From Phytoactinopolyspora mesophila (GTDB lineage Bacteria > Actinomycetota > Actinomycetes > Jiangellales > Jiangellaceae): a DNA stretch of 24,000 nt. The stretch covers positions 218,901 through 242,900 of the forward strand of contig NZ_WLZY01000005.1 of the NCBI RefSeq assembly GCF_010122465.1. The letters are read 5' to 3'. The first letter of the stretch is position 1; each line of letters starts with the position of its first letter. The notes beneath the pieces were generated by a model. That model did not search any database, was not told the DNA's origin, and saw only the letters and a list, made by a program, of their open reading frames with translations. This document shows positions 1,577-23,132 of the stretch, piece by piece. Both the position numbers and the translations under genes were made by a program.

Positions 1577-3330
1577 CAGAACTTACGCTCCATCGGCTGG
1601 TAACGGGTGATGACGACGGGCTTGTAGTCCAGCCGGACTTGGGCGGTGCCGTCGTCACCTGCGACTCGGTACGCCATGGTGTGGCGCATGTAATTGACGT
1701 CATCGCGGTTCTGGTAGTCCTCACGGAAATGCCCGCCGCGTGATTCCTTGCGCTCGAGGGCACCAGCGACGATCACCTCGGCCAAGTCGAGCAGGAAACC
1801 CAGCTCGACGGCTTCCAAGAGGTCGGTATTGAACCGCTTTCCCTTGTCTTGCACAGAGACCCGGGCGTAGCGCTCACGCAGGTCCGCGATGTCGGCCAGC
1901 GCTTGCTTGAGGGTCGCCTCGGAGCGGAACACCTGGGCGTTGGCGTCCATCGTTTCCTGCAGAGCCCGCCGGACGTCGGCGATGCGCTCGCCGTCCTCTC
2001 TCGCGCGCATGCCTTCCAGCAAAGCCACGGTGTCGGCTTCCGGTGAGTCCGGAAGCTCGACCCAGGGGGCCTTCGCGGCGAATTCGGCCGCGGCGATTCC
2101 CGCGCGGCGACCGAAGACGTTGATGTCGAGCAGCGAGTTCGTCCCGAGCCGGTTCGCGCCGTGCACACTGACGCAGGCGACCTCGCCGGCGGCGAACATG
2201 CCCGGAAGCACCCGCTTGTTGTCGGCCAGAACCTCCGTCTCCACGTTGGTGGGGATGCCGCCCATGGCGTAGTGCGCGGTGGGATAGACCGGGACCGGCT
2301 CGGTGTACGGCTCGATTCCGAGGTACGTGCGGGCGAACTCGGTGATGTCGGGCAGTTTTGCGTCGATGTGCGCCGGTTCGAGGTGGGTGAGATCGAGCAG
2401 GACGTAGTCCTTGTTCGGCCCGGCGCCGCGGCCCGCCCGTACTTCGTTGGCCATGGCGCGGGCGACGACGTCACGTGGGGCCAGGTCCTTCAGCGTCGGC
2501 GCGTAGCGCTCCATGAATCGCTCACCCTCGGAGTTGCGCAGGATGGCGCCTTCGCCGCGGGCCGCTTCGGAGAGCAGGATGCCTAGGCCGGCCAGGCCCG
2601 TCGGATGGAACTGGAAGAACTCCATGTCCTCCAGCGGCAGGCCACGGCGGTAGGCGATGGCCATGCCGTCGCCGGTGAGGGTGTGCGCGTTGGACGTGGT
2701 CTTGTACACCTTGCCGGCGCCACCGGTGGCGAACACCACGGACTTGGCCCGGAAGATGTGGATCTCACCGCTGGCGAGGTCGTAGGCCACGACGCCGGCG
2801 GTGCGCTGCTCGCCGTCCACCTCGTTGAGGATGACGTCGAGGACGTAGTACTCGCTGAAGAACTCGACGTCGTGCTTGAGGCACTGCTGGTACAGCGTCT
2901 GCAGGATCATGTGACCGGTGCGGTCGGCGGAGTAGCATGCGCGTCGCACCGCGGCCTCACCGTGGTTCCGGGTGTGCCCACCGAAACGTCGCTGGTCGAT
3001 GGTGCCGTCCTCGGTCCGGTTGAACGGCAGGCCCATCTTCTCGAGGTCGAGCACCGCGTCGATGGCTTCCTTCGCCATGATCTCCGCCGCGTCCTGGTCA
3101 ACGAGGAAGTCACCGCCCTTGACGGTGTCGAAGGTGTGCCATTCCCAGTTGTCGTCCTCGACGTTGGCCAGTGCCGCGCACATGCCGCCCTGGGCGGCGC
3201 CGGTGTGCGAGCGGGTGGGATAGAGCTTGGTGATGACGGCGGTCCGTGCTCGCTGGCCGGCTTCCAGCGCCGCCCGCATTCCAGCGCCGCCGGCGCCGAT
3301 GATCACCACGTCGTACTGGTGAGTCTGCAT
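1576..3330 (-). CDS. sdhA: Succinate dehydrogenase flavoprotein subunit
   Basis: 584-aa ORF. It has the N-terminal FAD dinucleotide fold (YDVVIIGAGGAGMRAAL), SHTGAAQGG with the covalent-FAD His context, and HPTG and HGANRLG motifs typical of SdhA/FrdA. Confidence 0.97.
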   Translation of the reverse strand: MQTHQYDVVIIGAGGAGMRAALEAGQRARTAVITKLYPTRSHTGAAQGGMCAALANVEDDNWEWHTFDTVKGGDFLVDQDAAEIMAKEAIDAVLDLEKMGLPFNRTEDGTIDQRRFGGHTRNHGEAAVRRACYSADRTGHMILQTLYQQCLKHDVEFFSEYYVLDVILNEVDGEQRTAGVVAYDLASGEIHIFRAKSVVFATGGAGKVYKTTSNAHTLTGDGMAIAYRRGLPLEDMEFFQFHPTGLAGLGILLSEAARGEGAILRNSEGERFMERYAPTLKDLAPRDVVARAMANEVRAGRGAGPNKDYVLLDLTHLEPAHIDAKLPDITEFARTYLGIEPYTEPVPVYPTAHYAMGGIPTNVETEVLADNKRVLPGMFAAGEVACVSVHGANRLGTNSLLDINVFGRRAGIAAAEFAAKAPWVELPDSPEADTVALLEGMRAREDGERIADVRRALQETMDANAQVFRSEATLKQALADIADLRERYARVSVQDKGKRFNTDLLEAVELGFLLDLAEVIVAGALERKESRGGHFREDYQNRDDVNYMRHTMAYRVAGDDGTAQVRLDYKPVVITRYQPMERKF

Positions 3331-3363
3331 GAGTTGAATCTCTCTTCCGGTCTTGTGGTCGTT

Positions 3364-3822
3364 CTAAGCGCCGGGGCAGAACGACGGCAACAAGTCCGCA
3401 GCCGCCTCGACCGGGCATGGATCGAACGTGAAGATCACCAGCGTGCCGAGCACGATTGTGATGGCCGCCGCGGTGTAGAGCCCGACCTTGAGCCACATCC
3501 GCAACTGGTCACGTTCGGCGTAGTCGTTGATGACAGTGCGCATCCCGTTGGAGCCGTGGATCATGGCCAGCCACAGCATGAGAAGGTCCCAGATCTGCCA
3601 GAACGGATCGGCCCACTTCCCTGCCACGAAGGCGAAGTCGAGTGCGTTGATGCCCTCGCCGACCATTAGGTTGACGAACAGGTGCCCGAAGACGAGGACG
3701 ATCAGCAACAGGCCGGAGACCCGCATGAACAGCCAGGCGTAGAGCTCGGTGTTGGTTCGTCCGCGGAGCCGGCGTGGAGACCGAGGCGACCGAGGGGCGG
3801 CGATGGAAGTCGTGGTTGTCAT
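3364..3822 (-). CDS. sdhD: Succinate dehydrogenase hydrophobic membrane anchor subunit
   Basis: 152-aa ORF with three hydrophobic segments, sitting between sdhC and sdhA in the canonical sdhCDAB order. Assignment rests on size, hydrophobicity and position. Confidence 0.8.
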   Translation of the reverse strand: MTTTTSIAAPRSPRSPRRLRGRTNTELYAWLFMRVSGLLLIVLVFGHLFVNLMVGEGINALDFAFVAGKWADPFWQIWDLLMLWLAMIHGSNGMRTVINDYAERDQLRMWLKVGLYTAAAITIVLGTLVIFTFDPCPVEAAADLLPSFCPGA

Positions 3823-3826
3823 CTAC

Positions 3827-4204
3827 TCAGCCCCCGAACACGTGAGATAGGTGGCGGATCAGGAACGGGACCATGAGTACCAGCCACAGGACACCGACGC
3901 CGGCCAGCATCTGGCGCTGGTACCTCGGGCCCTTGCCCCAGAAATCGACCAGGATGATCCGGACCCCGTTGAAGGCGTGGAAGATGATCGCGCCGACGAG
4001 CGCGGCCTCCATCAGCCCGACGATCGTCGTCTTGTAGGTGGCGATGACCTCGTTGTAGGCCTCCGGCGACACGCGCACCAGCGCCGTGTCCAGGACATGG
4101 ACGAGAAGGAAGAAGAAGATACCGATGCCGGTGACCCGATGGGCCACCCACGACCACATGCCTTCTCGGCCGCGATAGATCGTGCCTGCCGGCGCCTTGG
4201 GCAC
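3827..4204 (-). CDS. sdhC: Succinate dehydrogenase cytochrome b subunit
   Basis: 125-aa ORF with a GTG start (4204..4202), three hydrophobic helices and conserved His residues (WVAHRVTG, LLVHVLD, IFHAFNG). It is the first gene of the operon and is preceded by GAAAGG about 12 nt upstream. Confidence 0.85.
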   Translation of the reverse strand: MPKAPAGTIYRGREGMWSWVAHRVTGIGIFFFLLVHVLDTALVRVSPEAYNEVIATYKTTIVGLMEAALVGAIIFHAFNGVRIILVDFWGKGPRYQRQMLAGVGVLWLVLMVPFLIRHLSHVFGG

Positions 4205-4225
4205 GGGAGGTCACCTTTCTCACGA

Positions 4226-4231
4226 ATTTTA
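4226..4231 (-). promoter_or_regulatory. Candidate -10 hexamer (TAAAAT on minus strand) for the sdh operon
   Basis: An isolated AT-rich hexamer in a GC-rich context, about 22 nt upstream of the sdhC GTG. No convincing -35 is seen. Sequence pattern only. Confidence 0.25.
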
Positions 4232-4684
4232 AGAACCGGGCGCGCAGTGAGCTCGCGGATCCGATCCGCGTTCATGGCAGTCCGCCCCGCGGGAGCGGCC
4301 GGCCCGTCTCGTGCACCTGCGGCCCAGCCGGAGCATTCGGGCTCCGACCGGCGTACATCGTAGCCGTGTGTCCACCGCGGTTTCCGTGGCGGAAGTCACC
4401 ATCGCGGTGTGACATGAGTCAAACTACGGCCCGGCGGTGATCTCCTGCCGGGACCTCCAGGCTGTCCGCGTAGCCGCGCGCCGCAGTTGCCGACCGCACC
4501 CCGATGATCTTGGCGCGGGGGGATTCTGTGATGATCACTACCCGCGCATGTCGAGCAGCGTCAGTGCGGCGAAGGCGGCGTTAATGATTCGAAATCTCAG
4601 CATGAGAGATGGGGTCGTGACTTTTTGAGAGACGAACACCGATGATCGATGTCAAGGGTTGGCGGAGTATAGGGCGCTCAGGGG

Positions 4685-5266
4685 TTGCCTATGACGGCTG
4701 AATCGGTACATGTCGCACGAGTTTTGCTGGTGGGAAAGCGTGCCCGAGTGCTCGAAGAGCTCGGCCGTTCGCTTCAGCACCTCGGTATGGAAGTGGTCCA
4801 GGAAACGGATTTAGCCAGGGCGCGGGATGTTATCGACGGCTCAATGGTCGACGTCTTGGCGCTCGGCCGAGCGGTGCGCGGTGCCAAGCGAGAAGAGCTG
4901 GTGGTCGCGCTGCGGGCGCAGAATCCGCGGCTCAAGGTGGTTGACGGGCTGGCGCCCATACCACCCTTGTTGGTCGCTCAAGTTCAGGAGGCGGTGAGTA
5001 CTCCGCCGAGTGATACGCGAATTGTTGGGAGCGCGACTTATGAACAAGGAATTAATCGTGTTGTTCTGATAATGCGCCGATCGGCGGAGGTTGGTATAAT
5101 GCTGCACCGCCTCGATCCGCTTTACCGAATTCACCAAACGCCGATATTCGCGGGGCGGCTTGGTGATGGGCGGCAGAATATTCCGATTGGCCGCAAGATA
5201 GGGCGTGGCGAACGCTTCCTTGTCGTGCGTGCTGACCAGGAAACAACGGTTCATCAAGTGAACTGA
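4685..5266 (+). CDS. Hypothetical protein; degenerate receiver (CheY)-like N-terminal half plus an unrecognised beta-rich C-terminal half
   Basis: 193-aa ORF with AGGGG 7 nt upstream of the ATG. The N-terminal ~105 aa show a beta-alpha alternation like a receiver domain (VLLVGKRA..., VDVLALG, LKVVDG) but lack the N-terminal acidic pair and the conserved Lys. Codon third positions are visibly more A/T-rich than in neighbouring genes. The opposite-strand ORF 4841..5299 translates to low-quality sequence. Confidence 0.6.
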   Translation: MPMTAESVHVARVLLVGKRARVLEELGRSLQHLGMEVVQETDLARARDVIDGSMVDVLALGRAVRGAKREELVVALRAQNPRLKVVDGLAPIPPLLVAQVQEAVSTPPSDTRIVGSATYEQGINRVVLIMRRSAEVGIMLHRLDPLYRIHQTPIFAGRLGDGRQNIPIGRKIGRGERFLVVRADQETTVHQVN

Positions 5267-5303
5267 GGTGAGCGGTTCCGCCCGCGTATGGCGGTGCACG
5301 AAG

Positions 5304-5347
5304 ACGAGCCGGGTTGATGGCGATAGGGCGTCATCAACCCGGCTCGT
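5304..5347. terminator. Perfect 16-bp stem-loop between convergent genes (candidate bidirectional terminator)
   Basis: ACGAGCCGGGTTGATG (5304-5319) is the exact reverse complement of CATCAACCCGGCTCGT (5332-5347), with a 12-nt loop. Only weak U-rich tracts follow on either strand (TTGCTTCGCT on plus). Confidence 0.5.
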
Positions 5348-5401
5348 TGCTTCGCTGCGCTGAGCGACCGGCAGGGTGGTCCGGTACAGCTCAGTTCGAC
5401 G

Positions 5402-6187
5402 TCAGGACAGCGTGACCTCGGCGGCGACTTCCTGGCGTTCGTCGCTGAGAAGCTCACCGTCGTCATCGACCGGCGTCAGCGTGGCTTCGAAGACCACCGC
5501 GGCGTCGGTCTTGTACATGAAGTTCTCCCCGTAGGAGAGCGTCTGTCCCGGTCCGAGCGGGTAAATGCCGTCCTCGTGGTGGTCGGCCGTGCCGCTGTTG
5601 TTGACCTCCATCTCATCGTAGAGATCGAAGTCGGTGATGCTGTCCATTCCCTGCAGGTACGGCCAGTCCTCGTACGTAGCCTTCATGGAGACCAGGCTGG
5701 CGCTGAGGTTGATGGGCTCGTCCGAGGTGTTGGTGACGACATAGTTGACGAACACGATGTCGTCGCCCTCGGCCAGGACCGGCTCGTTGTCATCCGGGTC
5801 GACGAGCATGCCGTCCTTTGGCGACTCGGTGACGCCGACCTGGTAGACCTCGACCTCGAAGTTGTCACCCTCGAGGGTCGCGATCAGCTCACCAGGGGTG
5901 GTGACGGGCGCCGCCCACTCGGGGGCGTCGCCGTCGCCGGCACCGTTCGGGCTGTCGGCGGCCTCGTCGACGTCAGCGTCGTCCTCATCTGCGTCATCCG
6001 CGTCGGCGTCGTCCTCGGGCGCGTCGTCCTCAGGCGCGTCCTCCTCCGTTTCGCTGGCGCTGTCGTTGCTCTCTTCTGCTGTGGCGTCGTCGGATGCGTC
6101 ATCATCCGACCCGCACGCGACCAGACCGAACGCGAGAATCGCGCCGGCCGCGGCGGTGGCCATGCGACGCGTTGGCGTCATACGCAT
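5402..6187 (-). CDS. Acidic lipoprotein, function unknown (possible DUF4352-like beta-sandwich C-terminal domain)
   Basis: 261-aa ORF with GAAAGGAAAC upstream as RBS. It has a signal peptide with lipobox LVAC|GS, then a ~65-aa D/E/A-rich low-complexity linker, then a beta-rich domain. The family assignment is inference only. Confidence 0.8.
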   Translation of the reverse strand: MRMTPTRRMATAAAGAILAFGLVACGSDDDASDDATAEESNDSASETEEDAPEDDAPEDDADADDADEDDADVDEAADSPNGAGDGDAPEWAAPVTTPGELIATLEGDNFEVEVYQVGVTESPKDGMLVDPDDNEPVLAEGDDIVFVNYVVTNTSDEPINLSASLVSMKATYEDWPYLQGMDSITDFDLYDEMEVNNSGTADHHEDGIYPLGPGQTLSYGENFMYKTDAAVVFEATLTPVDDDGELLSDERQEVAAEVTLS

Positions 6188-6563
6188 GACAGGTTTCCTT
6201 TCGATTGATTCACCATGAGATATGCAGCTACGGCGCTAATGCCGCGGCTGGGTCAGGTCAAGGACACCCGCGAACGTGTTCACGGCGCGATCCCATGCGA
6301 CCCGCTACAAGTGTAGATGCCGCTACCCTGGCTAAACGTGGGTGGTAGGTGAATCGATGAGCGACGGCGGGTGGTACGCTCGCGTTTTTTTTCGCGCTGC
6401 CGGCCGCCGGCGGGTCGTACCCGAGATCAAGGGGCTTCAACGGCCGGTGCGACCGTAGGCGATAACCGCTCGCGAGCGGCCTTCATCGGTTGCGAGCCAT
6501 CATGCGCGGCCGCCGCGGCGGGCTCCTCGTGGGACTCGCCGACGGTGACCGAATCATGTGGAC

Positions 6564-7571
6564 TCAGCGGACGATGGTCTGGACCTCGGCTACCGGGACA
6601 GTGAACGTCTCCTCGGTGGAGATCGGATCGAGATCGCCGCTGTCTGTCTCGGCGTCGCCGATCCCGCCGTGCCAGCCGGTCTGCCAAATGGTTTCGGCGG
6701 TGACCGGGAAACCGTCGGGATACTGGGTGGAGGCCCGCTCGTAGACAACTGCGCACGCTGGGTCTGTGCCCTCTGTCCAGGCTGTGACCGCTTCGGCCGG
6801 CGAGCATGTGGTGCTGCCTACCGGCGAGCTGATACGCAGCCCATCGGTGCTGGCCCACACCTGGACCCAGGTGCCGGTCTCCGGGATGGTGGCGCGGATT
6901 TCGACGAGGCCGTCCTCGCCGCCCACGGCGTCCGGGTCGAGCACCCAGTAGCCGGTGGGGATGTTCACCACAGTGGTGTTCTCGGTACCGGCTGCCTTCG
7001 GGTTCTGGTCCACTTCCGGGTTGGGAATCTCGATCAAGGCGCTAGCGGCGAGAGCAAGCTCTTCTGGCTGGATCACCACCGGTGGCTCGGACTCAGTGTC
7101 CTCCCACCAGACCGCCAGTTGCGGAATGCAGGCGTCCGGGTACCAGGCCTGACAGCTTCCGAGGAAGGTCTCGAAGTCGTCCAGCGTCGCATCCTCCACG
7201 CATCGCGCTTTATACCAGCGACCGTCCTTCGGGTCACTCTCTTCGTATATCTCCATGATGTAGTCCGGGTCAGGCAAGAAGACCCAGCCGCCCGGGAACC
7301 ACATCATGATCGTGAACCACCAGGATAGAAACTCTTCGTCGCTCTCGAACGCATTCCACCAGCACCGTGCGGGAATCGACATCGTCTCGGTCCTGCTGCC
7401 GCCGGGGATAGTGTCACCTTCGACGACAACAGTCTCGGTGACCGTGCCTTCCACGGTGTTCTCGTCGTCGTCGACGTAGCCATCTCGGTCTGCAGACGCG
7501 GGTGCGGAGATGGCGGCAGTGATGAAGAATGCGACGGGAATCGTTGCGAAGAGTCTCGACCGAACGCTCAT
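6564..7571 (-). CDS. Secreted Cys-containing protein, uncharacterised family (paralog S1 of 11077..12135 and 12151..13206)
   Basis: I prefer the ATG at 7571 because GAGGAG lies 8 nt upstream and the ATG overlaps the upstream lipoprotein stop as ATGA; the track ORF starts at 7589. Signal peptide MSVRSRLFATIPVAFFITAAISAPASA|D. The C-terminal ~180 aa align with S2/S3 (VNIPTGYWV, C...C pair, YPDGFPVTAET.W, VPVAEVQTIVR). Confidence 0.8.
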   Translation of the reverse strand: MSVRSRLFATIPVAFFITAAISAPASADRDGYVDDDENTVEGTVTETVVVEGDTIPGGSRTETMSIPARCWWNAFESDEEFLSWWFTIMMWFPGGWVFLPDPDYIMEIYEESDPKDGRWYKARCVEDATLDDFETFLGSCQAWYPDACIPQLAVWWEDTESEPPVVIQPEELALAASALIEIPNPEVDQNPKAAGTENTTVVNIPTGYWVLDPDAVGGEDGLVEIRATIPETGTWVQVWASTDGLRISSPVGSTTCSPAEAVTAWTEGTDPACAVVYERASTQYPDGFPVTAETIWQTGWHGGIGDAETDSGDLDPISTEETFTVPVAEVQTIVR

Positions 7572-8275
7572 TCGAAATACTCCTCGCATGTGTCTTTGTC
7601 AGGACCAATGTCGGTGTCTGCCGTGTACCAGACGCCGTCGATCAGGCGCAGTGTGGGGACCGAAAGGTAGTAGGGCTCGCTTTCGTTTGGCATGGAGCCT
7701 GCGGTACCTGTAAACCATCCGCGGGTGTCAATACACGCTTCTAGGGTCGCCTCGTCGCCGTTGACGTCTACGCTTAGAGCGACGATCGAGGAAGGTGGTC
7801 CGGTGGAGACGCGCTCGGTCTCAACCGATTCCTCGGCATAGTCGCGGATGCGCGACAGGTTGGGATCTATCGCAGCATCCTCGATACCGGAGTCTTCGGG
7901 GGGCACGCCCCACAGGATCTGTTCCCAGGATGCTTCAAACCGCCCGTACGCCTCGATTACCTCCATTTCCTCGTCGCTGACCTCGTCGGGTGGAGTTATT
8001 GGTATAACTTCGCGGAGTTCGACGATGTTCTCTTGTGGCAGGTGAGGCTGTGTGAAGGTGGCGACGGGCGTGGGGTCGTCGGATGTGGGATCTTCGGTGG
8101 GATCGGCGGTGGGCTCAGGGCTGTCCGTAGTCTCGGGTTCCGCCGCCGGGGCCGTTGGCTCTGCGGTGGAGGGTTCGGTGGCGTCGAGCCCAGCTGGCTC
8201 GTCGCCTGAGCCGCATGCTGCCAGTGTGAGTACCGTTACTGCCGCCATCGCCATGGTGCGCAGTATGAACCGCAT
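7568..8275 (-). CDS. Lipoprotein, uncharacterised family (paralog L1 of 10261..10971)
   Basis: 235-aa ORF with AAGGGAG as RBS. Lipobox LAAC|GS is followed by a Pro/Thr/Glu/Asp-rich linker, then a globular domain beginning TFTQPHLP...EVSDEEMEVIEAYGRFEASWEQILWG. This aligns with SFTQPHLP...DVSDDEREVLEAAGRFMATWQAVLFG of L2. Two Cys positions are conserved. Confidence 0.8.
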   Translation of the reverse strand: MRFILRTMAMAAVTVLTLAACGSGDEPAGLDATEPSTAEPTAPAAEPETTDSPEPTADPTEDPTSDDPTPVATFTQPHLPQENIVELREVIPITPPDEVSDEEMEVIEAYGRFEASWEQILWGVPPEDSGIEDAAIDPNLSRIRDYAEESVETERVSTGPPSSIVALSVDVNGDEATLEACIDTRGWFTGTAGSMPNESEPYYLSVPTLRLIDGVWYTADTDIGPDKDTCEEYFE

Positions 8276-8503
8276 GTGACTCCCTTGTTGTCCCCGTTAC
8301 GACGAAGGGTCAGGATAGACGTAAAATGTGTCGACGTGCACGGCGCCGTAGGCTATCTCCGCCGGTCCAGCTGCGAGAGTGTGAAGAATCTCCTGGTGTG
8401 CACATTGTCACGGCCATAGCGTGGGGCCTATCACTACGGTTGGGCGATGCTTGAGTGCGACGTCCTCCATCGGATGTGACCCATCTGCCAAAGCGAGGCA
8501 ACC

Positions 8504-10084
8504 ATGAGCGCGACAACGGAGTCCGGGCTGCCGATCGAACCCGTCTACGGCCCGGAAGCACTGGATGGCTGGGATCCTGACACGAAGCTGGGGGAGCCGG
8601 GAGCTTATCCGTTCACCCGGGGTGTGTACCCGAACATGTACACCGGCCGGCCGTGGACCATGCGGCAGTACGCCGGCTTCGGGACCGCCGCGGAGTCCAA
8701 CCGGCGCTACCACCAGCTGGTGGAGGCCGGTACGGGAGGGCTGTCGGTGGCCTTCGATCTGCCGACGCAGATGGGTTTCGACTCCGACGCCGCGTTGGTC
8801 AAGGGTGAGGTAGGCAAGGTCGGCGTCGCCATCGACTCGATCGAAGACATGCGGACCCTGTTCGACGGCATCCCGCTGGACCAGGTTTCGACGTCGATGA
8901 CCATCAACGCTCCAGCCGCGCTGCTCCTATTGCTCTATGAACTCGTCGGCGCCGAGCAGGGGGTCGCCGGAGACAAACTCACCGGGACCATCCAGAACGA
9001 TGTACTCAAGGAATACATCGCCCGGGGCACCTATATCTTTCCGCCCGCGGCCTCGCTACGGCTGGTGAGCGACATCTTCGCCTACTGCCGGCGGGAACTC
9101 CCGCGCTGGAACATGATCTCGATCTCCGGCTATCACATGGCCGAGGCCGGTGCCAATCCCGCGCAGGAGGTCGCGTTCACGCTGGCCAACGCCAAGGAAT
9201 ACGTGCGTGCGGCATTGTCGGCCGGACTCGAGGTCGACGAATTCGCGCCCAGGTTGTCCTTCTTCTTCGTCTCGCGGACCTCGTTCCTCGAAGAGGTCGC
9301 CAAGTTCCGCGCCGCCCGCCGGATCTGGGCGCAGATGATGCGGGACGAGTTCGGCGCCAAGAACCCCAAGTCGCAGATGCTCCGGTTTCACACCCAGACC
9401 GCCGGTGTCCAGCTCACCGCACAGCAGCCGGAGGTCAACCTGGTCCGGGTGGCGGTCCAGGCGATGGCGGCGGTGCTGGGCGGAACGCAGTCGTTGCACA
9501 CCAACGCCTACGACGAAGCCATCGCTCTGCCCACGGAGAAGGCGGCGCGACTGGCTCTGCGCACGCAGCAGGTGCTGGCGCACGAGACCGACATTACCCG
9601 CACGGTGGACCCGTTCGCGGGCTCCTACGCGGTCGAGTCGATGACCGACGATCTCGAAGAAGCTGCCCGGGATCTCATGCGCCAGGTCGACGACCTCGGT
9701 GGTGCGGTCGCGGCTATCGAACGCGGCTTCCAGAAGCAGGAGATCGAGCGGTCCGCCTATGCCGTAGCGCAGGAGATCGACCACGGCGATCGGGTCGTCG
9801 TCGGGGTCAACCGCTACAACTCCGACGGCGAGGAGCCGTATGAGCCGCTGCGGGTGGACCCGGAGCTCGAGGCTCAGCAGATCGAGCGGCTGGCGCGGGT
9901 TCGTGAGTCACGGTCGGCCGCCGACGTCGAGCGTTGCCTCGGGGCGTTGCGAGATGCCGCGGCCGGGAAAGCCAACGTGATGGACCCGATGCGTGAGGCA
10001 CTCGCCGCCCGCGCCACCGTCGGTGAGGTGTGTGATGCGCTGCGCGAGACCTGGGGCGTGTACCAGCCCCCGTCGACCCTCTGA
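8504..10084 (+). CDS. Methylmalonyl-CoA mutase family large (substrate-binding TIM-barrel) subunit, without a B12-binding domain
   Basis: 526-aa ORF with GCGAGG as RBS. Strong family motifs are present: [78 protein letters not shown]. The protein ends where the linker to the cobalamin-binding domain would begin, and there is no DxHxxG module. Confidence 0.93.
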
Positions 10085-10089
10085 CCACC

Positions 10090-10208
10090 GTGATCGTGAG
10101 TGGTTTCCTGCCCTTTCCCCAGTGATCGTGAGCGCGATCACGTCGTCATGGCGTCCAGGATCCGCTCATGATCACGGGCGTGTGGAGCGGGATCCTGATC
10201 ACGATCAC
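10090..10208. repeat. 119-bp nested inverted-repeat element, copy E1
   Basis: Four copies of a 12-mer: GTGATCGTGAGt (10090-10101, +), GTGATCGTGAGC (10122-10133, +), GCTCATGATCAC (10164-10175, inverted) and GATCACGATCAC (10197-10208, inverted). The geometry is the same as the element at 18481-18599. It shares the 20-mer TCCGCTCATGATCACGGGCG (10161-10180) with 18585-18604. It starts 5 nt after the mcm stop. Confidence 0.8.
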
Positions 10209-10260
10209 CGGCTGTGGCGATAGAGTGTGGCGCTGTCCGCAGGGCAACGGGAGGAACTTG

Positions 10261-10971
10261 ATGGCAGCCGGCACGGGGATCGCGAAGCATGCGCTGGCCT
10301 GTGCGACGGTGGCAGCGCTGGCCGTCACGGCGTGCGGCGCGGACCGGGAGGAGCCAGAAGGGCTGGGTACCGAAACGCCGGCGGCAACGGATCCGGCCGC
10401 CGACCCCACCGGTGAGGCGACCGGCAATGCGGACGCCACGCCCGGTTCTGACGAGGACGACGTCGATCCGACTGCCGAGCCGGAGGCGTCGTTCACCCAG
10501 CCGCATCTGCCCACCGAAGAGCCGAGCGTCATCGAACTCGACGACGAACTCCCGGTACAGCCGCCAGGCGATGTCAGCGACGACGAACGCGAGGTCCTGG
10601 AAGCGGCCGGCCGGTTCATGGCCACCTGGCAAGCCGTGCTGTTCGGCGCCGACGCGGAACACTCGCGCCTGTATGACACGACCACGGGCGTCCAGCTCGA
10701 CCGTCTCACCTCTCTCATCGACGAGATGGCCGAAGATGAGTGGGTTTTTGTCGGCGAGCCGATGGAACTTGAGGCGCTGAGCGTGAGTGTGGGAGGCGGC
10801 GAGGCCGAGGCCGATCTCTGTATCGGGCTGCCAGGCTGGATCGAGATCCGTGGCGGCGTCGGCGCACCGTTCGGCAGTGTGGAGCGGTATCTGATCAGCT
10901 TGTGGATGGAAGACGGCCGGTGGATGGTGACGGACGCGACCTCGCAAGACACCGCCGAGTGCGACTTTTAG
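10261..10971 (+). CDS. Lipoprotein, uncharacterised family (paralog L2 of 7568..8275)
   Basis: I prefer the ATG at 10261 because GGGAGG lies 6 nt upstream. The track ORF start at 10168 would translate through repeat element E1. Signal peptide with lipobox VTAC|GA, an acidic/Pro-rich linker, and a conserved FTQPHLP...AAGRF..W block shared with L1. Confidence 0.8.
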   Translation: MAAGTGIAKHALACATVAALAVTACGADREEPEGLGTETPAATDPAADPTGEATGNADATPGSDEDDVDPTAEPEASFTQPHLPTEEPSVIELDDELPVQPPGDVSDDEREVLEAAGRFMATWQAVLFGADAEHSRLYDTTTGVQLDRLTSLIDEMAEDEWVFVGEPMELEALSVSVGGGEAEADLCIGLPGWIEIRGGVGAPFGSVERYLISLWMEDGRWMVTDATSQDTAECDF

Positions 10972-11076
10972 TCCTCTGCGCAGAGTGGGCTTGAGCGACC
11001 GACAGCGTCCCACACCGGATCAAGGGCTGTTATTCTACCGTGGTCCGGACCCCGACATGTCGAGGTGTATGGAGAT

Positions 11077-12135
11077 ATGCGCAGGACGTCCCGTATCGCA
11101 GCCTGTGTCGCACTGGTTGCCGGGGGCTCGCTGGCGTTGACTACGGTGGCCGCAGCCGATCTGCCTGGCGGGGACAACGATGGCGAGTCTGGGTACTACG
11201 TCGAAGTCGGCGTCGATCTCAGCGGCGACGCCGCGCCCGATGGCGGGGGTTACTACAGTTTCTATATCCCGCCGCTGTGCTATTGGGGTCCGTTCCGAGG
11301 TTTGGCTGACGGGCCGGATCATGGTGACGGAACCGACATGCAGAAGGTTCTGGACTACATGGAGTACGCCTATAACATCCCGCTGAAGGATGGCTCCGGA
11401 TATTGGGTGCCGTACTACGGGCCGTTGAGTCGTTACGAAGAAGCCCTCGAGCGGGAAGAAGATGGCGAGGACCTCATCTGGTACTCCCTATACTGCAACA
11501 TTCACTACGGAGACGAGCGCGCCATCGAATTCGCCGATGGGGAGTACAACGGCGGCGCGCTACTCACCGGCCTGCGGACTCAGGGCGAAGAGCCCGAGAT
11601 CCTGATCGACCCCGAGGATCTGGCAGAGGCGGCTCGGGATGAGATGGTGATCGACCTCCCGGACATCGATCGCAATCCGCAGATGGCTGGTTCCAATGCG
11701 GGCGCGACGCTGGTCAACATTCCGACCTGGTTCTGGGTGACCAACCCGGACAGCGTGGGTGGCCCGGATGGTGAACGCAATATCCGCGCGGAGGTAGTCG
11801 GCGGTGATGTGTGGGCGGAGGTCACAGCCCAGACCGGGGGGTTGTCGATCGGCTCGCCGAACGGCAGCGCGTTCTGTGATCCGTCGGTTGCCCTGATCGA
11901 GTGGGGTGACGACGCGAGTGACGACGACGCCTGCACGGTGAGTTTCAGCCGCGCCTCGGTCAGCTACCCGGACGGCTACCCGGTCACCGCGTCCACCGAA
12001 TGGTCGGCGACCTGGGAAGGTGTCACCCAGGACGGTGAGGCGGTCGGCGGCGATCTTGAGCCCCTTTCCCGGCAAGCCGCTCCGGTTGATATTCCGGTGG
12101 CGGAGATCCAGTCGATCGTGCGCGGGTTGCGTTGA
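11077..12135 (+). CDS. Secreted Cys-containing protein, uncharacterised family (paralog S2)
   Basis: In-frame starts are GTG at 11065 (track) or ATG at 11077, which gives MRRTSRIAACVALVAGGSLALTTVAAA|DLPGG. The C-terminal half is ~85-90% identical in protein to S3 and clearly homologous to S1 (VNIPTWFWV, FCDP...DDACTVSF, SYPDGYPVTASTEWSATWEG, VAEIQSIVRGLR). Confidence 0.8.
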   Translation: MRRTSRIAACVALVAGGSLALTTVAAADLPGGDNDGESGYYVEVGVDLSGDAAPDGGGYYSFYIPPLCYWGPFRGLADGPDHGDGTDMQKVLDYMEYAYNIPLKDGSGYWVPYYGPLSRYEEALEREEDGEDLIWYSLYCNIHYGDERAIEFADGEYNGGALLTGLRTQGEEPEILIDPEDLAEAARDEMVIDLPDIDRNPQMAGSNAGATLVNIPTWFWVTNPDSVGGPDGERNIRAEVVGGDVWAEVTAQTGGLSIGSPNGSAFCDPSVALIEWGDDASDDDACTVSFSRASVSYPDGYPVTASTEWSATWEGVTQDGEAVGGDLEPLSRQAAPVDIPVAEIQSIVRGLR

Positions 12136-12150
12136 GGATTCGGAGCCGAG

Positions 12151-13206
12151 ATGCCGAGACCTGCACCAGGCAAGCGGAGGACCATTAGCAGCGGAACTGG
12201 GCTCGCGCTCGCGGCCGCGGTTTCGCTGGCTTTGCCCGGGATCGCCGTGGCCGATCTGCCCGGAGGCGGTGACGACGACGGGTACACGGTGGCCGTCAAT
12301 GTCCGGTTCAGCGGCGACGCCGCGCCGGGCGGCGGTGGCAGCTATACGGTCTACGTACCGCCCATCTGCTGGTGGGAACAGATGCCGAGCAACAACGTGG
12401 ACCCCACCGATCCGGAAGCGGTCTACGAGTACTACATGGAAGAAATCAGGGGCGGTGGTCGTACCCCCAGAGAAGTTCTCCAGTGGCCGGACGAAGAAGT
12501 CTTCCTCGATGCTATCGAGCGGGAAGAGAACGGCGAGAACATCACCTGGTACTGGATCTCCCACCGCTCGGCCAATCGGGCTCCGTGTTCGCCGCAGATA
12601 CGTGACTACGGGGATAGCTGGAACAACGCGATCGTGATCTACTCCCCGTTCGCGCACAACGAGCCGCCGGAGCCGGCGGTGGATCCGGAGGTTCTGGCGG
12701 AGGCGGCTCGAGATCGGATGGTGATCGATCGGCCGGAGGTCGATCGCAATCCGAAGATGGCTGGCTCCAACGCGGGGGCGACGCTGGTCAATGTGCCGAC
12801 CTGGTTCTGGGTGACCAATCCGGACAGTGTGGGTGGACCGGATGGCGAGCGCAGTATTCGTGCGGAGGTTGTTGGTGGCGACGTGTGGGCCGAGGTGACG
12901 GCGCGGACGGGTGGCCTGTCGATCTCATCACCGAGTGGGAACACATTCTGTGATCCGTCGGTGGCCGTGGTCGCGTGGGGTGATGGCGCCAGCGACGACG
13001 ATGCGTGCACGGTGAGTTTCAGCCGGGCCTCGGTCAGCTACCCGGACGGTTACCCGGTCACCGCGTCCACGGAGTGGTCGGCGACGTGGGAAGGCGTGAC
13101 CCAGGACGGCGAAGGGGTCGGTGGGGACCTCGCGCCGCTGTCTCGCCAAACGAGCGTCGACGTACCGGTGGCCGAGATCCAGTCGATTGTCCGGGGTCTG
13201 CGCTGA
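12151..13206 (+). CDS. Secreted Cys-containing protein, uncharacterised family (paralog S3, tandem duplicate of S2)
   Basis: 351-aa ORF beginning 15 nt after the S2 stop, with GGAG 5 nt upstream. Signal peptide ...LALAAAVSLALPGIAVA|DLPGG. It shares the DLPGG..SGDAAP.GGG.Y..Y.PP.C.W N-terminal block and the C-terminal domain with S2. Confidence 0.85.
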   Translation: MPRPAPGKRRTISSGTGLALAAAVSLALPGIAVADLPGGGDDDGYTVAVNVRFSGDAAPGGGGSYTVYVPPICWWEQMPSNNVDPTDPEAVYEYYMEEIRGGGRTPREVLQWPDEEVFLDAIEREENGENITWYWISHRSANRAPCSPQIRDYGDSWNNAIVIYSPFAHNEPPEPAVDPEVLAEAARDRMVIDRPEVDRNPKMAGSNAGATLVNVPTWFWVTNPDSVGGPDGERSIRAEVVGGDVWAEVTARTGGLSISSPSGNTFCDPSVAVVAWGDGASDDDACTVSFSRASVSYPDGYPVTASTEWSATWEGVTQDGEGVGGDLAPLSRQTSVDVPVAEIQSIVRGLR

Positions 13207-13351
13207 CCTGCGGTGAACGTGACACGCGCAGTTCGCTTTCGTTCTTGTAACAACGTCGAATCCGTGTCGCTTGGTGCGGATTCTGCGGATACGCTCTCCG
13301 TTCTCGGGCCAATACTGTCTGCCCGAGCATGTTCAGCGGAGGGAGCGGCCC

Positions 13352-14380
13352 GTGCCACGGGTTCTGAAGGTTGCTGCGGGCGTCGCCGGCTTGGCGTTGT
13401 TGCTCGGAGCGTGCGCAAGTGATGATGATGACGCAGGCGATTCGAACGGTTCGGGCGAGGACCTCCAAGTAGGGCTTGCCTTCGATATCGGGGGTCGGGG
13501 AGACCGGTCGTTCAATGATTCGGCGGCAGCCGGGATCGAGCGGGCTCGTGACGAGCTTGGCATCGAATTCCAGGAACTGTCCCCCAACCCGGACGGTTCC
13601 AATCGAGGTGAACTACTACGGGAGCTCGCGGACGGCGGGCACGATCCCATCTTCGGTATCGGGTACGCCTTCTTCGAAGAGATGGACACCGTCGCCGAGG
13701 AGTATCCGGAGGTGCAGTTCGTTCGCGTCGACGGGCCCCCGAGTGATCTCGACAACGTCGCCGTGATGACGTTCGCCGACCACGAGGGTTCTTTCCTGAT
13801 GGGTGTGGCGGCTGCGCTGACCACGGAGAGCGGCGAGGTCGGCATCATCGGCGGTAACGAAGGTGCGGTCATCAATGCCTTCGGCGCCGGTTTCAAGCAG
13901 GGAGTTGAAGCGGCCGATCCGGGGATTGAGATCACCGACCAGCGCCTGGCGTCGGGTGAAGACCCGAGCGGGTTCGCGGACGCAGCTGGTGCGAGGGTTG
14001 CGGCTGAGGCCATGTACGAGCGCGGAATCGACGTCATCTACACCCCTGCGGGTGACTCGAACGTTGGGACGTTCCAGGCGGCCGCGGACGCAGGTGCCTG
14101 GGCGATCGGAACCGACTCCGACCAGTACGAGACGGTCGGCGACCCCGAGCTGCAGGACGTCATTCTCACGTCCATGCTCAAGCGCGTCGACACCGCCGTA
14201 TTCGAGAGCATCAGCACCTACGCTGACGAGGGTTCAGTCGAGTCCAAGGCGTACGACTTGTCGGACGAGGGCGTCGGGTATGCCACCAGTGGCGGATTCC
14301 TCGATGACATCACTGACGAGCTCGAGGAATACAAACAGCAGATCATCGACGGCGAGATCGAGGTCAGTTCCACCGAGTGA
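13352..14380 (+). CDS. BMP-family ABC transporter substrate-binding lipoprotein (nucleoside-type, PnrA/NupN-like)
   Basis: I prefer the GTG at 13352 because GGAGGGAG lies just upstream; the track ORF starts at 13271. Lipobox LLGAC|AS. Typical BMP/Med-family sequence (VGLAFDIGGRGDRSFND, GYAFFEEM, GGNEGAVINAFGAGF). It is the first gene of the ABC operon next to cdd/deoA. Confidence 0.88.
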   Translation: MPRVLKVAAGVAGLALLLGACASDDDDAGDSNGSGEDLQVGLAFDIGGRGDRSFNDSAAAGIERARDELGIEFQELSPNPDGSNRGELLRELADGGHDPIFGIGYAFFEEMDTVAEEYPEVQFVRVDGPPSDLDNVAVMTFADHEGSFLMGVAAALTTESGEVGIIGGNEGAVINAFGAGFKQGVEAADPGIEITDQRLASGEDPSGFADAAGARVAAEAMYERGIDVIYTPAGDSNVGTFQAAADAGAWAIGTDSDQYETVGDPELQDVILTSMLKRVDTAVFESISTYADEGSVESKAYDLSDEGVGYATSGGFLDDITDELEEYKQQIIDGEIEVSSTE

Positions 14381-14492: not shown

Positions 14493-16073
14493 ATGGACAA
14501 CGCCGAGAACGCAGGTGATGCACCTGCTGAAGCGGCTGGCGAGACTGCCATCGAGCTCACGGGCATTACCAAACGGTTCCCGGGCGTGATCGCCAATCGG
14601 GATGTTCATCTTCAGGTGAACCGTGGTGAGGTGCATGCCGTCGTCGGCGAGAATGGTGCCGGCAAGTCGACGCTGATGAAGATCCTCTACGGGATGTACC
14701 GGCCGGATGAGGGCGTCATCGCGGTGGATGGCAAACCGGTCGACTTCCATGGGCCGAAAGACGCTATCGCGGCCGGTATCGGCATGGTGCACCAGCATTT
14801 CATGCTGGCCGACAACTTCACAGTGCTCGAGAACATCGTGCTCGGCGCCGAGCCTCGGCGGGGTATCCGGCTCGATTTCGCTGCCGCCAGGCGCCAGATC
14901 ATCGAGCTCTCCGAACGCTACGGACTGGGACTACGCCCTGGGCGGCTGGTAGAGGAACTCAGCGTCGCGGCCAGACAACGCGTCGAGATCGCCAAGGTCT
15001 TGTTCCGTGGTGCCCGGGTGCTCATCCTGGACGAGCCAACCGCCGTCCTGGTGCCGCAGGAAGTCGACGCGCTGTTCTCGAATCTAGGACAACTCCGAGA
15101 AGCGGGCCTCTCGGTCATCTTCATCAGCCACAAGCTCGACGAGGTGCGCCAGGTAGCCGACCGGGTCACGGTGATCCGTCGCGGCGAGACGGTGGCCACC
15201 GTCGACCCGCGTGCGACGTCGTCGCGTGAGCTGGCGCACCTGATGGTTGGCAGCGAACTGCCGACACCGGAGACCACCGAGTCCACCGTGACCGAGCAGG
15301 TCGAGCTGTCCGTGCGTGGAGTTACCATCGGCGCAGACGACGGGCCGGACCTCCTCCAGGACATCAGCTTTGACGTGCGCCGCGGGGAGATCGTTGGGTT
15401 CGCCGGTGTCGAAGGCAACGGCCAGAGCGAACTCGTCGAAGCCATCATGGGGTTGCGTCCGCTTGATGCTGGAAGCATCGAAATCGGTAGTCAGGATGTC
15501 ACCAGCTGGTCGTCGCACCGCCGCCGGGTGAGCGGAGTCGGATTCATACCCGAGGACCGTCATCGGCAGGCATTACTTCTCGAGGCGCCATTGTGGGAAA
15601 ACCGGCTGCTCGGATGGCACAGCCAGGCGCCGGCTGGCGGACGATTCTGGATCAACCCGGCGATCGCGCGTGCCGAGACCGTGAAGATCATGAAAGAGTA
15701 CGACGTCCGCGCACCCGGCCCAGAGACGCTGGCCACCGCATTGTCCGGTGGTAACCAGCAGAAGTTCGTGATCGGCAGGGAGATGAGCACCGACCTGAGG
15801 GTGCTGGTCGCCGCCCACCCCACTCGGGGGATCGACGTGGGGGCGCAGGCGGCGGTCTGGGACCGGCTGCGCGAAGCCCGGGCCGCCGGCTTGGCTACGG
15901 TGCTCTTGTCGGCCGACCTGGAGGAGCTGCTGGGCCTGTCCGACACCCTTTATGTGTTGTTCAGCGGCCGGATCGTCGCCAAGCTCGATCCGGCCGCTGT
16001 CACCCCTGAGATCCTGGGCGCGCACATGACTGGTGCGGCGGCCGGACCCGACGAGGCGGGAGAGCCGACATGA
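14493..16073 (+). CDS. ABC transporter ATP-binding protein with two fused ABC domains (BMP/nucleoside-sugar class)
   Basis: 526-aa ORF with AGGGGG as RBS. The first domain has Walker A GENGAGKST, signature LSVAARQRVEI and Walker B VLILDEPT. The second domain has GVEGNGQSEL, LSGGNQQK and a Walker-B-like segment. Confidence 0.93.
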   Translation: MDNAENAGDAPAEAAGETAIELTGITKRFPGVIANRDVHLQVNRGEVHAVVGENGAGKSTLMKILYGMYRPDEGVIAVDGKPVDFHGPKDAIAAGIGMVHQHFMLADNFTVLENIVLGAEPRRGIRLDFAAARRQIIELSERYGLGLRPGRLVEELSVAARQRVEIAKVLFRGARVLILDEPTAVLVPQEVDALFSNLGQLREAGLSVIFISHKLDEVRQVADRVTVIRRGETVATVDPRATSSRELAHLMVGSELPTPETTESTVTEQVELSVRGVTIGADDGPDLLQDISFDVRRGEIVGFAGVEGNGQSELVEAIMGLRPLDAGSIEIGSQDVTSWSSHRRRVSGVGFIPEDRHRQALLLEAPLWENRLLGWHSQAPAGGRFWINPAIARAETVKIMKEYDVRAPGPETLATALSGGNQQKFVIGREMSTDLRVLVAAHPTRGIDVGAQAAVWDRLREARAAGLATVLLSADLEELLGLSDTLYVLFSGRIVAKLDPAAVTPEILGAHMTGAAAGPDEAGEPT

Positions 16074-17206
16074 CCCGCGTGGTGGGATGGTTGCGCCGCG
16101 TCGTGCCGACGCTCGTAGCGCTGGGGGTGGCCCTGGTCGTCACCGCGTTGTTCATCCTGATCATCGGTGAGAACCCGTTGCGTGCGGTGGGCGCGTTGTT
16201 CGACTTCGGCGACACCTCGGTAGCTCAGGCGAACTCGATCGGTGTATGGATCAACCGGGCCGCACCGCTGTTTCTCGCCGGGCTAGCCGTCAGCATCGGC
16301 TTTCGGATGGGCCTGTTCAACATCGGCGTCGAGGGTCAGTATCGGGTGGCCACCGTGGTGGCAGCCGGGGTGGGCGCCGCGATCGTCTTGCCAGCTCCGC
16401 TGCACGTCTTCGTGATCGTCATCGCGGCGATGGCTGCCGGCGCCGCCTACGCGGCCATCCCGGCCGTCCTCAAGGTCACCCGTGGCGTCAGTGAGGTCAT
16501 CTCGACGATCATGCTCAACGCCATCGCGATCGGCTTGGTCGCCTGGCTGGTCCGGGTGCCCTTCGTCGATCCCGAGCTGGGCCCGGGTGAGATCGTCGCC
16601 ACCCGCCGGATCGAGGAGTCAGGGCACTTCCCTGGCCTGAACGAGTTGTTCGGTGTGATTGGCCTGGAAGAGCCCCGGCGCCCGGTGCACGGCTTCGTCA
16701 TCGTGGCGATCGTCGTCGGCATCATCATGGCCATCGTGCTCAGCCGGGCGCGGTTTGGATTCGAGTTACGGGCCAGCGGCCTCAACGCGCTGGCCGCCAC
16801 CGCCAACGGTATCTCGTCGAAGGCGATGATCCTGAAAGCGATGCTGCTGTCGGGAGCCCTCGCCGGACTGGTGGGTTTGCCGGATCTGCTCGGATCGGCG
16901 CATCGATTCCATGCTGACTCGTTCGTCGCGGGGTACGGATTCACCGGCATCGCGGTAGCGCTGCTGGGACGAAATCGCCCTGTCGGGATCGCCTTCGCTG
17001 CCTTGCTGTTCGCCTTCCTCGACCGGGCCGGTCCTAGCTTGCAGTCCGAGGGTATTCCGCCCGCCGCGGTGACGATCATGCAGGGAATCGTCGTGTTGTC
17101 GGTGCTGATCGTCGACGAGGTGGCCCGGCGTGGGCTTCTGCGCCGCGAGGAACGAAGGGCCCGGAACCAGGATCGGGATGCCGTGACCGAGGAGGTGCCG
17201 TCGTGA
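16070..17206 (+). CDS. ABC transporter permease (BMP-family system, first permease)
   Basis: 378-aa polytopic hydrophobic ORF. Its ATG overlaps the ATPase stop (ATGA, 16070-16073). Confidence 0.88.
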   Translation: MTRVVGWLRRVVPTLVALGVALVVTALFILIIGENPLRAVGALFDFGDTSVAQANSIGVWINRAAPLFLAGLAVSIGFRMGLFNIGVEGQYRVATVVAAGVGAAIVLPAPLHVFVIVIAAMAAGAAYAAIPAVLKVTRGVSEVISTIMLNAIAIGLVAWLVRVPFVDPELGPGEIVATRRIEESGHFPGLNELFGVIGLEEPRRPVHGFVIVAIVVGIIMAIVLSRARFGFELRASGLNALAATANGISSKAMILKAMLLSGALAGLVGLPDLLGSAHRFHADSFVAGYGFTGIAVALLGRNRPVGIAFAALLFAFLDRAGPSLQSEGIPPAAVTIMQGIVVLSVLIVDEVARRGLLRREERRARNQDRDAVTEEVPS

Positions 17207-22910: not shown

Positions 22911-23132
22911 ACCGACCAGTCTGCCGCACCAGCGGATCTTCCCGGGCACGGGACAGCAACTGGAAACCCGGAGCCTCCTCGAACAACGCCTGGCTTCTCC
23001 GCGCACGCGCAACTCCGTGTGATGAGCTTCTCCGTCATCAGCCGGGGATTGGTAGCGTCAAGGGCGTTGGCTGTGTGGCCGTCAATCGGGCCTGTGTGCC
23101 GGTAGCGTTGTTTGATCGTCGAAGGGACACGT

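Follow-up and report, generated by a model that had tools for sequence, protein, structure and literature searches.

The locus

The subject of this analysis is a 24,000-nucleotide stretch of Phytoactinopolyspora mesophila DNA (contig NZ_WLZY01000005.1, positions 218,901 to 242,900), which in its full length is called the window below, and in particular five of its genes that flank an acyl-CoA mutase gene and encode proteins with predicted export signals. Two encode lipoproteins (L1 and L2) and three encode secreted proteins (S1, S2 and S3), so that the mutase gene is bordered by two head-to-head L-S pairs, one of them extended by S3. What is new here is that the L-S family is linked to Tad/Flp pilus clusters and to genes of EssC-type type VII secretion systems (T7SS). 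The features that make up the locus are as follows.

6564-7589, minus strand: S1, secreted protein of 341 amino acids (open reading frame; the NCBI start at 7571 gives 335 amino acids)
7568-8275, minus strand: L1, lipoprotein of 235 amino acids (open reading frame and alignments)
8276-8503, no strand: intergenic region from which L1 and the mutase gene diverge, presumed to hold promoters for both
8504-10084, plus strand: acyl-CoA mutase large subunit of 526 amino acids (PF01642, E = 1.8e-221; TIGR00641, E = 3e-226)
10261-10971, plus strand: L2, lipoprotein of 236 amino acids from the NCBI start (the open reading frame opens at 10168)
11065-12135, plus strand: S2, secreted protein of 356 amino acids (open reading frame)
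12151-13206, plus strand: S3, secreted protein of 351 amino acids, tandem paralogue of S2 (open reading frame)

An original prediction, made from the letters of the sequence, had given the order as S1 and L1 on the minus strand followed by the mutase gene, L2, S2 and S3 on the plus strand, and all six open reading frames (ORFs) are present as it described. S1 is 100% identical to P0003, a "Secreted protein" of P. mesophila. The true start of S2 may lie at 11077, as its orthologue P0001 begins at an internal Met. The stop codon of L1 and the start codon of S1 overlap as ATGA. A scan of 5200-13500 for sigma-70-like promoters found none, and Rfam and promoter/terminator scans of the window gave no Rfam family and nothing useful.

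The L lipoproteins are predicted to have an NTF2-like fold

L1 and L2 are homologous (39% identity, E = 5e-36), and alignments confirm the lipobox, tether, FTQPHLP segment and two cysteines that had been ascribed to both of them. The lipobox, as read from the sequence, is LAAC in L1 and VTAC in L2. In L1 it is followed by a disordered tether of ~50 amino acids that is rich in Pro, Thr, Glu and Asp, by the FTQPHLP segment and by an NTF2-like domain that carries the conserved cysteine pair C181 and C230, while L2 has an acidic and Pro-rich tether, the same segment and an NTF2-like domain with two cysteines.

Assignment of L to the NTF2-like fold comes from structure prediction. The AlphaFold2 model of L1 has a predicted local distance difference test score (pLDDT) of 80 overall and of >90 over residues 70-235, and it displays the cone-shaped alpha+beta arrangement with helices packed on a curved beta sheet. 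Comparison of this model with the PDB using Foldseek gave 35 matches at E <=1e-3, all of which are NTF2-like. The best of these is the intermembrane-space domain of ARC6/PARC6 (5d9r, E = 5e-6, target-normalised TM-score 0.65, 15% identity), with further matches to SnoaL-type enzymes, a bile-acid dehydratase and the CaMKII hub. Among curated NTF2/SnoaL families L has no Pfam match and no NCBIfam match above cut-off, and a sequence-profile search of the PDB with the L profile (A4) gave no match. UniRef names for L homologues are "NTF2 family" or, in one homologue, "Mce-associated membrane protein", and P0018, a relative of L2, is named "Nuclear transport factor 2 family protein".

The S proteins combine a variable head with a constant C-terminal domain

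Pairwise identities among S1, S2 and S3 range from 33 to 60% (S1 versus S2, 33%, E = 9e-52; S2 versus S3, 60%, E = 2e-128), which is far beyond chance and bears out the view that these are homologous signal-peptide proteins. Their hydrophobic N-termini, as read from the sequence, end in ASA, AAA and AVA, respectively, and every motif that had been listed for them (P..C.W, NP(K/Q), VN.PT.FWV, the Cys pair, YPDG.PVTA and VPVAE.Q) is found in the alignments. S1 consists of a signal peptide, a variable alpha/beta N-terminal domain with an invariant C76, and a conserved, beta-rich C-terminal domain (~residues 170-341) with a long hairpin. Its AlphaFold2 model (pLDDT 79, predicted TM-score 0.67) finds nothing in the PDB with Foldseek at E <0.08, with TM-scores of ~0.1. 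Family scans of S gave no match in Pfam, NCBIfam, PADLOC or PHROGs, a profile search of PDB sequences with the S profile (A3) gave nothing, and no S homologue was found in a phage collection. Consequently, the statement that neither protein belongs to a characterised family holds, with S lacking a database match and L matching only the broad NTF2-like superfamily by fold.

The S family is nevertheless large. While a word-indexed protein search returned only 17 close relatives, even with a diverse profile included, an exhaustive profile search of cluster representatives at 50% identity yielded 1278 representatives, 134 of them below E = 1e-30, and nearly all are 330-370 amino acids long. Among 140 full-length members C76 is conserved in 100% and C279 in 99%, and 126 of the 140 have an even number of cysteines (4 in 97 and 6 in 29). 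Even counts together with two invariant or nearly invariant cysteines fit a disulfide-bonded exported protein, consistent with the extracytoplasmic disulfides suggested earlier for the Cys pairs. Strict co-occurrence of C130 and C262 in S, as would be expected of a second disulfide, was not borne out, probably as a result of alignment shifts. Residues conserved at >=85% comprise C, P, W, N, E, Q, S and small or hydrophobic residues with no set of His or Asp, and S thus has the appearance of a binding or structural protein and not of an enzyme.

Conservation is unevenly distributed along S, with a mean top-residue frequency of 0.48 in the C-terminal domain and 0.32 in the N-terminal half. This mosaic is most evident between S2 and S3, which are 38% identical in their N-terminal halves and 88% identical in their C-terminal halves. 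Recent gene conversion between the two genes is ruled out, since 41% of the codons for identical residues in the conserved half differ. These codon differences indicate that the C-terminal domain is kept constant by selection as the N-terminal head diversifies. A related metagenome contig carries the same S2-S3 tandem (P0001/P0002). In the window a single lipoprotein, L2, apparently partners both S2 and S3, whose heads differ. Additionally, S2, S3 and their orthologues start with an Arg-Arg pair (MRRTSRI and KRRTISS; MRRTFRA in P0002) that is absent from S1. This S2-type N-terminus loosely resembles a Tat signal, and the export route of S2-type proteins may differ from that of S1.

L and S form a conserved and co-diverging unit

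A pattern scan with one genome per species provided 32 loci from Jiangellales, Kineosporiales, Kribbella, Nocardioides, several metagenome-assembled genomes (MAGs) and one Chloroflexota MAG, which together with the window gives 33 sources. Genes in these loci were called with custom domain-restricted hidden Markov models (HMMs), with the L model restricted to the NTF2 domain, since an iterated HMM of the full-length protein drifted, via the signal peptide and tether, to unrelated lipoproteins such as the BMP binding protein. The loci contain 40 S genes in total, 3 of which lie at contig edges and were left out. A same-strand adjacent gene with an L domain accompanies 34 of the 37 assessable S genes, the exceptions being S3 as a tandem copy, an orphan S gene and a locus that is degraded. 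L precedes S in 30 of these pairs, and the remaining 4, in which S precedes L, belong to a Nocardioides-type group. Furthermore, the distance matrices of L and S correlate (Mantel r 0.84, with 0 of 5000 permutations as high), paralogue types of L and S co-segregate, and the ATGA stop/start overlap is found in many other loci besides the window. The L-S pair is therefore a conserved, co-diverging and often translationally coupled unit. This adjacency and co-divergence lend support to the original proposal of a functional two-component unit, with a pair that recurs in other genomes and proteins that fall into no known family.

The proposal that the mirror-image copies arose by local duplication and inversion did not survive this comparison. 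S1/L1 groups with pairs of P. limicola, P. halophila, Haloactinopolyspora alba and one MAG, and S2/L2 groups with pairs located downstream of the mutase gene in other genomes. The two pairs thus belong to different old paralogue clades with orthologues in other genera, which excludes a recent local inverted duplication. Head-to-head pairs around the mutase gene were seen only in P. mesophila and P. limicola, and P. alkaliphila is without the inverted pair.

The Chloroflexota MAG (locus L032, 72-1413) has an ORF with an L domain (E = 1.5e-24) followed by a weakly S-like ORF (E = 1.5e-5). This pair reflects either horizontal transfer, a binning error or a reach of the family beyond the Actinomycetota.

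The pair recurs in Tad/Flp pilus clusters of actinobacterial plasmids

A tblastn search of plasmids with S2 gave matches over the C-terminal domain on 24 actinobacterial plasmids, and a plasmid search with an S-like protein from Brachybacterium found the S domain on 226 plasmids (Streptomyces 156, Rhodococcus 23, Curtobacterium 8, Micrococcus 6, Cutibacterium 6, and others). Eight of the 226, from eight genera, were inspected (loci L041-L048), namely plasmids of Streptomyces, Kineococcus (pKRAD01), Brachybacterium, Cutibacterium acnes, Rhodococcus, Arthrobacter (pAL1), Clavibacter (pCSL1) and Nonomuraea. In all eight a gene for a lipoprotein of ~175-215 amino acids lies directly before the S-like gene inside a co-directional Tad/Flp cluster. 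These clusters encode SAF/RcpC, TadZ-like, TadA, TadB, TadC, Flp, two TadE, a TadG-related protein and a giant LysM/BTAD protein, and often a prepilin peptidase. The giant protein is constant in Tad clusters (L040, 3593-6370; L041-L048) and is ~1000 amino acids in length, with a membrane segment at its N-terminus, a LysM domain and a BTAD-type region at its C-terminus; it is likewise uncharacterised. The pair may be at the head of the plasmid cluster, may separate TadG from the giant protein or may follow the giant protein, and L immediately precedes S in every case.

Profile comparisons establish homology of the plasmid pairs, such as those of pAL1, pCSL1 and the C. acnes linear plasmid (PAGK_2370 and the next ORF), with L and S of the window. 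Using hhalign, the window-type S profile (A3) aligned with the plasmid S profile (A7) at 99.6% (E = 5e-24) over S1 residues 170-341, and the L profile aligned with the plasmid lipoprotein profile (A8) at 98.7% (E = 3e-16). The plasmid genes share with the window the placement of L directly before S with overlapping stop and start codons, the lipobox and two-cysteine layout of L (in A8 the Cys of the lipobox and both downstream Cys are invariant), and the C-terminal domain of S with its motifs. A hydrogenase match obtained when A7 was searched against the PDB was spurious and traced to a low-complexity region.

The association extends beyond plasmids. For example, a metagenome contig (L040) has the order tadB tadC flp tadE tadE tadG giant L S, and there S is followed by the same M20 peptidase gene that follows S in loci with the mutase synteny described below. 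In Kineosporia (L005/L008) the pair diverges from a complete tad operon.

The plasmid genes are themselves uncharacterised. Many plasmid S-like genes are annotated as "ATP/GTP-binding protein" or "ATP-binding protein", and their products have a signal peptide. No nucleotide-binding family was detected in the window and chromosomal S members scanned, and no conserved P-loop-type motif is present in the plasmid alignment, so the name looks like a propagated misannotation. In a published listing of the C. acnes plasmid cluster, which reports the plasmid from acne-associated strains, these ORFs are uncharacterised and the lipoprotein is labelled "RcpB" on the basis of a CpaD match with E = 0.53 (PMC3666418). 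Our literature search found no paper on the L and S genes or on DUF6571.

The pair also occurs beside EssC-type secretion genes

A gene for an EssC-like ATPase, which is a ~1550-amino-acid FtsK/SpoIIIE ATPase with an FHA-like N-terminus, occurs within 10 kb of the pair in 8 loci (L006, L008, L010, L011, L020, L025, L035 and L049). These loci come from at least five lineages that include Jiangellales, Kineosporia, Nocardioidaceae, Actinomyces and uncultured lineages, and WXG100-like genes and genes for LXG-like or HExxH toxins occur alongside. Given the rarity of EssC genes in a genome, their presence near several independent L-S contexts is unlikely to be due to chance, as judged from a rough estimate and not from a formal test. 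In one locus, L049, a giant-protein gene cut by the contig end, a WXG100 gene (PF06013), L, S and EssC follow one another on one strand and L and S overlap as ATGA. The L protein of this locus (P0028) aligns closely with P0030, a further L protein encoded on another P. mesophila contig. The protein encoded beside EssC (L049, 3-1607; L011, 19880-21001) has 40% identity to the C-terminal 500 residues of the LysM/BTAD giant of Tad clusters, which indicates that the giant protein accompanies L and S in Tad and EssC clusters alike.

Several of these loci resemble T7SS islands. In Jiangellales and Actinomyces (L006, 11173-15834 and neighbouring genes; L010, L011 and L035) they contain small WXG100-like proteins with a GAW.S..AD.F motif not recognised by Pfam, larger LXG-like proteins, one of which has a C-terminal HExxH, and, in Actinomyces, DUF6571 proteins. 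EccB-, EccD- and MycP-type genes were not seen within the fetched stretches of these islands. In Kineosporia aurantiaca (L008, 10946-13171, minus strand) a 741-amino-acid protein is homologous to the N-terminal part only of the EssC-like protein (FHA, membrane region and first degenerate domain) and has no FtsK/SpoIIIE Pfam match. Its gene is convergent with S and adjoins the complete tad operon.

Linkage to the mutase gene is inherited synteny

Many chromosomal pairs lie in a syntenic region with the order sdhCDAB, (GT4), mutase, L, S, (M20 peptidase), BMP binding protein, ABC transporter, cdd and deoA. The mutase-L-S synteny is found in ~17 of 43 chromosomal or metagenomic sources, and the same-strand order is kept across Jiangellales, Kribbella and Nocardioides. 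Elsewhere the pair is located in quite different places, such as beside sbcCD, beside glnA/glnE and after an OpuAC binding protein gene. Linkage to the mutase gene, the incidental nature of which had been raised as a point to check, is consequently an old inherited synteny and not a functional rule. The mutase of the window has the substrate-binding domain only and is without a B12-binding domain, and no small-subunit or MeaB gene is nearby. In Nocardioides (L016 and L024) the same syntenic position is occupied by a full-length mutase of 720-780 amino acids followed by a MeaB-like GTPase.

The remaining genes of the window are the following.

812-4204, minus strand: sdhB, sdhA, sdhD and sdhC
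4685-5266, plus strand: ORF of unknown function, 193 amino acids
5402-6187, minus strand: third lipoprotein with an acidic tether, 261 amino acids, just downstream of S1
13271-14380, plus strand: BMP-family binding protein
14493-18477, plus strand: ABC ATPase and two permeases
19046-20416, plus strand: MFS transporter
20495-21820, plus strand: pyrimidine-nucleoside phosphorylase
21888-23012, minus strand: RDD-family protein

The third lipoprotein, with LVAC as its lipobox and a tether of Asp, Glu and Ala that is very acidic, is outside the L family, with a weak match to DUF5067 (E = 4e-4) that is below cut-off. In related genomes (L034, L037 and L050) a GT4 glycosyltransferase gene and small ORFs lie between sdhC and the mutase gene, while the corresponding space in the window (4205-8503) has the 193-amino-acid ORF, the acidic lipoprotein gene and the inverted S1-L1 pair but lacks GT4. 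These differences point to a local replacement or insertion that is common to P. mesophila and P. limicola.

A model for L-S function and its alternatives

The window pairs are an orphan and expanded version of a widespread, undescribed accessory pair of Tad and T7SS clusters. We propose, with a probability of roughly 0.5, that L and S make up an extracytoplasmic two-subunit complex that is accessory to envelope-crossing machines in Actinomycetota, mainly to the Tad/Flp type IVc pilus but also to the EssC-type T7SS. According to this model L would be lipid-anchored on the outer face of the cytoplasmic membrane, where its disordered tether would carry an NTF2-like protein-binding domain into the cell-wall zone. 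S would be exported, would acquire disulfides on folding and would comprise an N-terminal domain that varies and a Trp-rich C-terminal beta domain that is constant, and its binding to L would hold it at the surface. The complex would probably act as a scaffold or guide in the cell-wall zone and not as an enzyme. The window pairs, along with S3, would be chromosomal paralogues that are no longer next to machine genes and that either work in trans alongside a machine whose genes lie elsewhere or have been co-opted for a related role in the wall zone.

Physical binding of L to S, tethering of S at the outer face of the membrane and a scaffold or guide role are suggested by analogy with two systems in which membrane-anchored NTF2-like domains contact other proteins. 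The first is OmamA, which has a membrane-tethered, envelope-facing NTF2-like domain that is thought to stabilise Mce complexes via protein contacts (PMC13492129). Mam/Omam proteins such as OmamA (Rv0199) resemble L in this respect but differ in having a transmembrane-helix anchor where L has a lipid, in being encoded beside mce operons and in lacking an S-like partner. No mce genes were seen in the loci with annotated neighbours; the other loci had no mce-specific scan. The second is ARC6/PARC6-PDV, in which a membrane protein uses its NTF2-like domain to bind a partner (PDV2/PDV1) by the C-terminal peptide of the latter. ARC6 and PARC6 belong to a eukaryotic/cyanobacterial lineage and function in plastid division, so the resemblance to L is a fold analogy only. 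By the same analogy L may have a pocket that receives the C-terminal VPVAE.Q tail of S, which is nearly invariant. The lipoproteins of Gram-negative Tad systems (TadD, RcpB and CpaD) are like L in being encoded in Tad clusters and acting outside the cytoplasmic membrane. However, they serve an outer-membrane secretin that is missing in monoderm Actinobacteria, and L has no Pfam match to TadD (TPR), RcpB or CpaD at E values up to 1.

A number of observations weigh against the proposed model, particularly as it applies to the window. HMMs for TadA, TadB/C, SAF and the giant protein have no match in the 24-kb window, which also has no EssC- or WXG100-like gene, and most chromosomal pairs, including those of the mutase/BMP group, are likewise without any of these genes within 10 kb. 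Any connection between the window copies and such machines is thus something that we infer from their relatives. The window L proteins have the additional conserved FTQPHLP segment that plasmid L proteins lack, and the window S proteins (341-356 amino acids) have a larger folded N-terminal domain than plasmid Tad S proteins (170-310 amino acids); given these two differences, the function of the window copies may have diverged. S has no recognisable fold relative, so that the term scaffold is derived from the absence of catalytic signatures. Finally, a study of the chromosomal tad clusters of M. luteus makes no mention of such genes (PMC4322843).

Several other explanations account for part of these data. 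The pair could serve the EssC-type T7SS, either in crossing of WXG100/LXG-like substrates or in assembly of the membrane apparatus, with the Tad association being secondary. In favor of this are the eight loci with EssC-like genes, the operon-like orders L-L-S-EssC in L006 and WXG100-L-S-EssC in L049, and the neighbours of S1/L1-clade members, which are EssC and WXG-like genes in L010 and L011 and a WXG-like gene in L001. We regard a T7SS-only role as unlikely, since all eight plasmid Tad clusters inspected keep L-S with no EssC-like gene in the stretches fetched and the orientation of the pair relative to EssC varies (convergent in L008, L011 and L025). Loci of the T7SS type also hold the Tad-type LysM/BTAD giant, and both contexts may be one larger neighbourhood. 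Slightly less probable is that the window copies are a self-contained module for the wall zone or for ligand binding, unconnected with pili or secretion, in which, for example, the pocket of L holds a hydrophobic ligand or wall precursor and works with the neighbouring ABC binding proteins. NTF2-like folds often bind small molecules, and SnoaL and bile-acid dehydratase are among the fold matches of L. Additionally, ~17 loci keep L-S directly upstream of BMP-family nucleoside transporter genes and another set has it directly after an OpuAC-type binding protein. However, the BMP linkage is one inherited syntenic block and has the weight of one observation only, the pair is found in many other, unrelated settings, neither protein has homology to transporter components, and the best fold matches of L are protein-binding NTF2 domains.

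Two further explanations carry little weight. NTF2-like immunity proteins exist, several paralogous pairs occur per genome, and genes for LXG-like and HExxH toxins lie near pairs in L006, L010 and L011, all of which would fit a polymorphic toxin-immunity system with S as secreted toxin and L as lipoprotein immunity protein. Such a system is very improbable, as the C-terminal part of S is conserved and its N-terminal half variable, which is the reverse of polymorphic toxins. There are also no conserved catalytic residues in S, L lies upstream of S whereas an immunity gene is expected downstream, the family is stably inherited in core synteny across orders, and PADLOC gave no match. The least probable explanation is a functional tie to the mutase, such as a metabolic or cofactor-related envelope function. 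The same-strand mutase-L-S order shared by Jiangellales, Kribbella and Nocardioides would be in keeping with such a tie, but it is largely refuted by the distribution of the pair, with >20 L-S loci having no mutase gene nearby. Moreover, the mutase is cytoplasmic while L and S carry export signals, and the whole sdh-to-deoA region is syntenic so that no functional reason is needed.

Implications for envelope-crossing machines in monoderm Actinobacteria

We know of no wall-zone component that has been defined for the passage of Tad pili or T7SS across the monoderm actinobacterial wall, where there is no secretin. L-S is a concrete candidate for this missing part, based on its presence in every plasmid Tad cluster inspected and on the occurrence of the S domain on 226 plasmids, and the plasmids concerned include those of C. 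acnes, Clavibacter, Rhodococcus and Streptomyces. The analysis also defines two large protein families that have no Pfam or NCBIfam model, and it corrects a widespread annotation by identifying the supposed ATP/GTP-binding protein as a signal-peptide protein. A more speculative extension of the proposed model, to which we give only a small chance, is that L, S and the LysM/BTAD giant constitute a hitherto unrecognised wall-zone sub-complex, specific to monoderm Actinomycetota, that is used by both the Tad/Flp pilus and the EssC-type T7SS, although these two machines are unrelated. If so, this sub-complex would take the filament or substrates through the wall, a job that is performed in diderms by secretins and pilot lipoproteins, and the orphan chromosomal pairs would be spare or specialised versions that carry different variable S heads.

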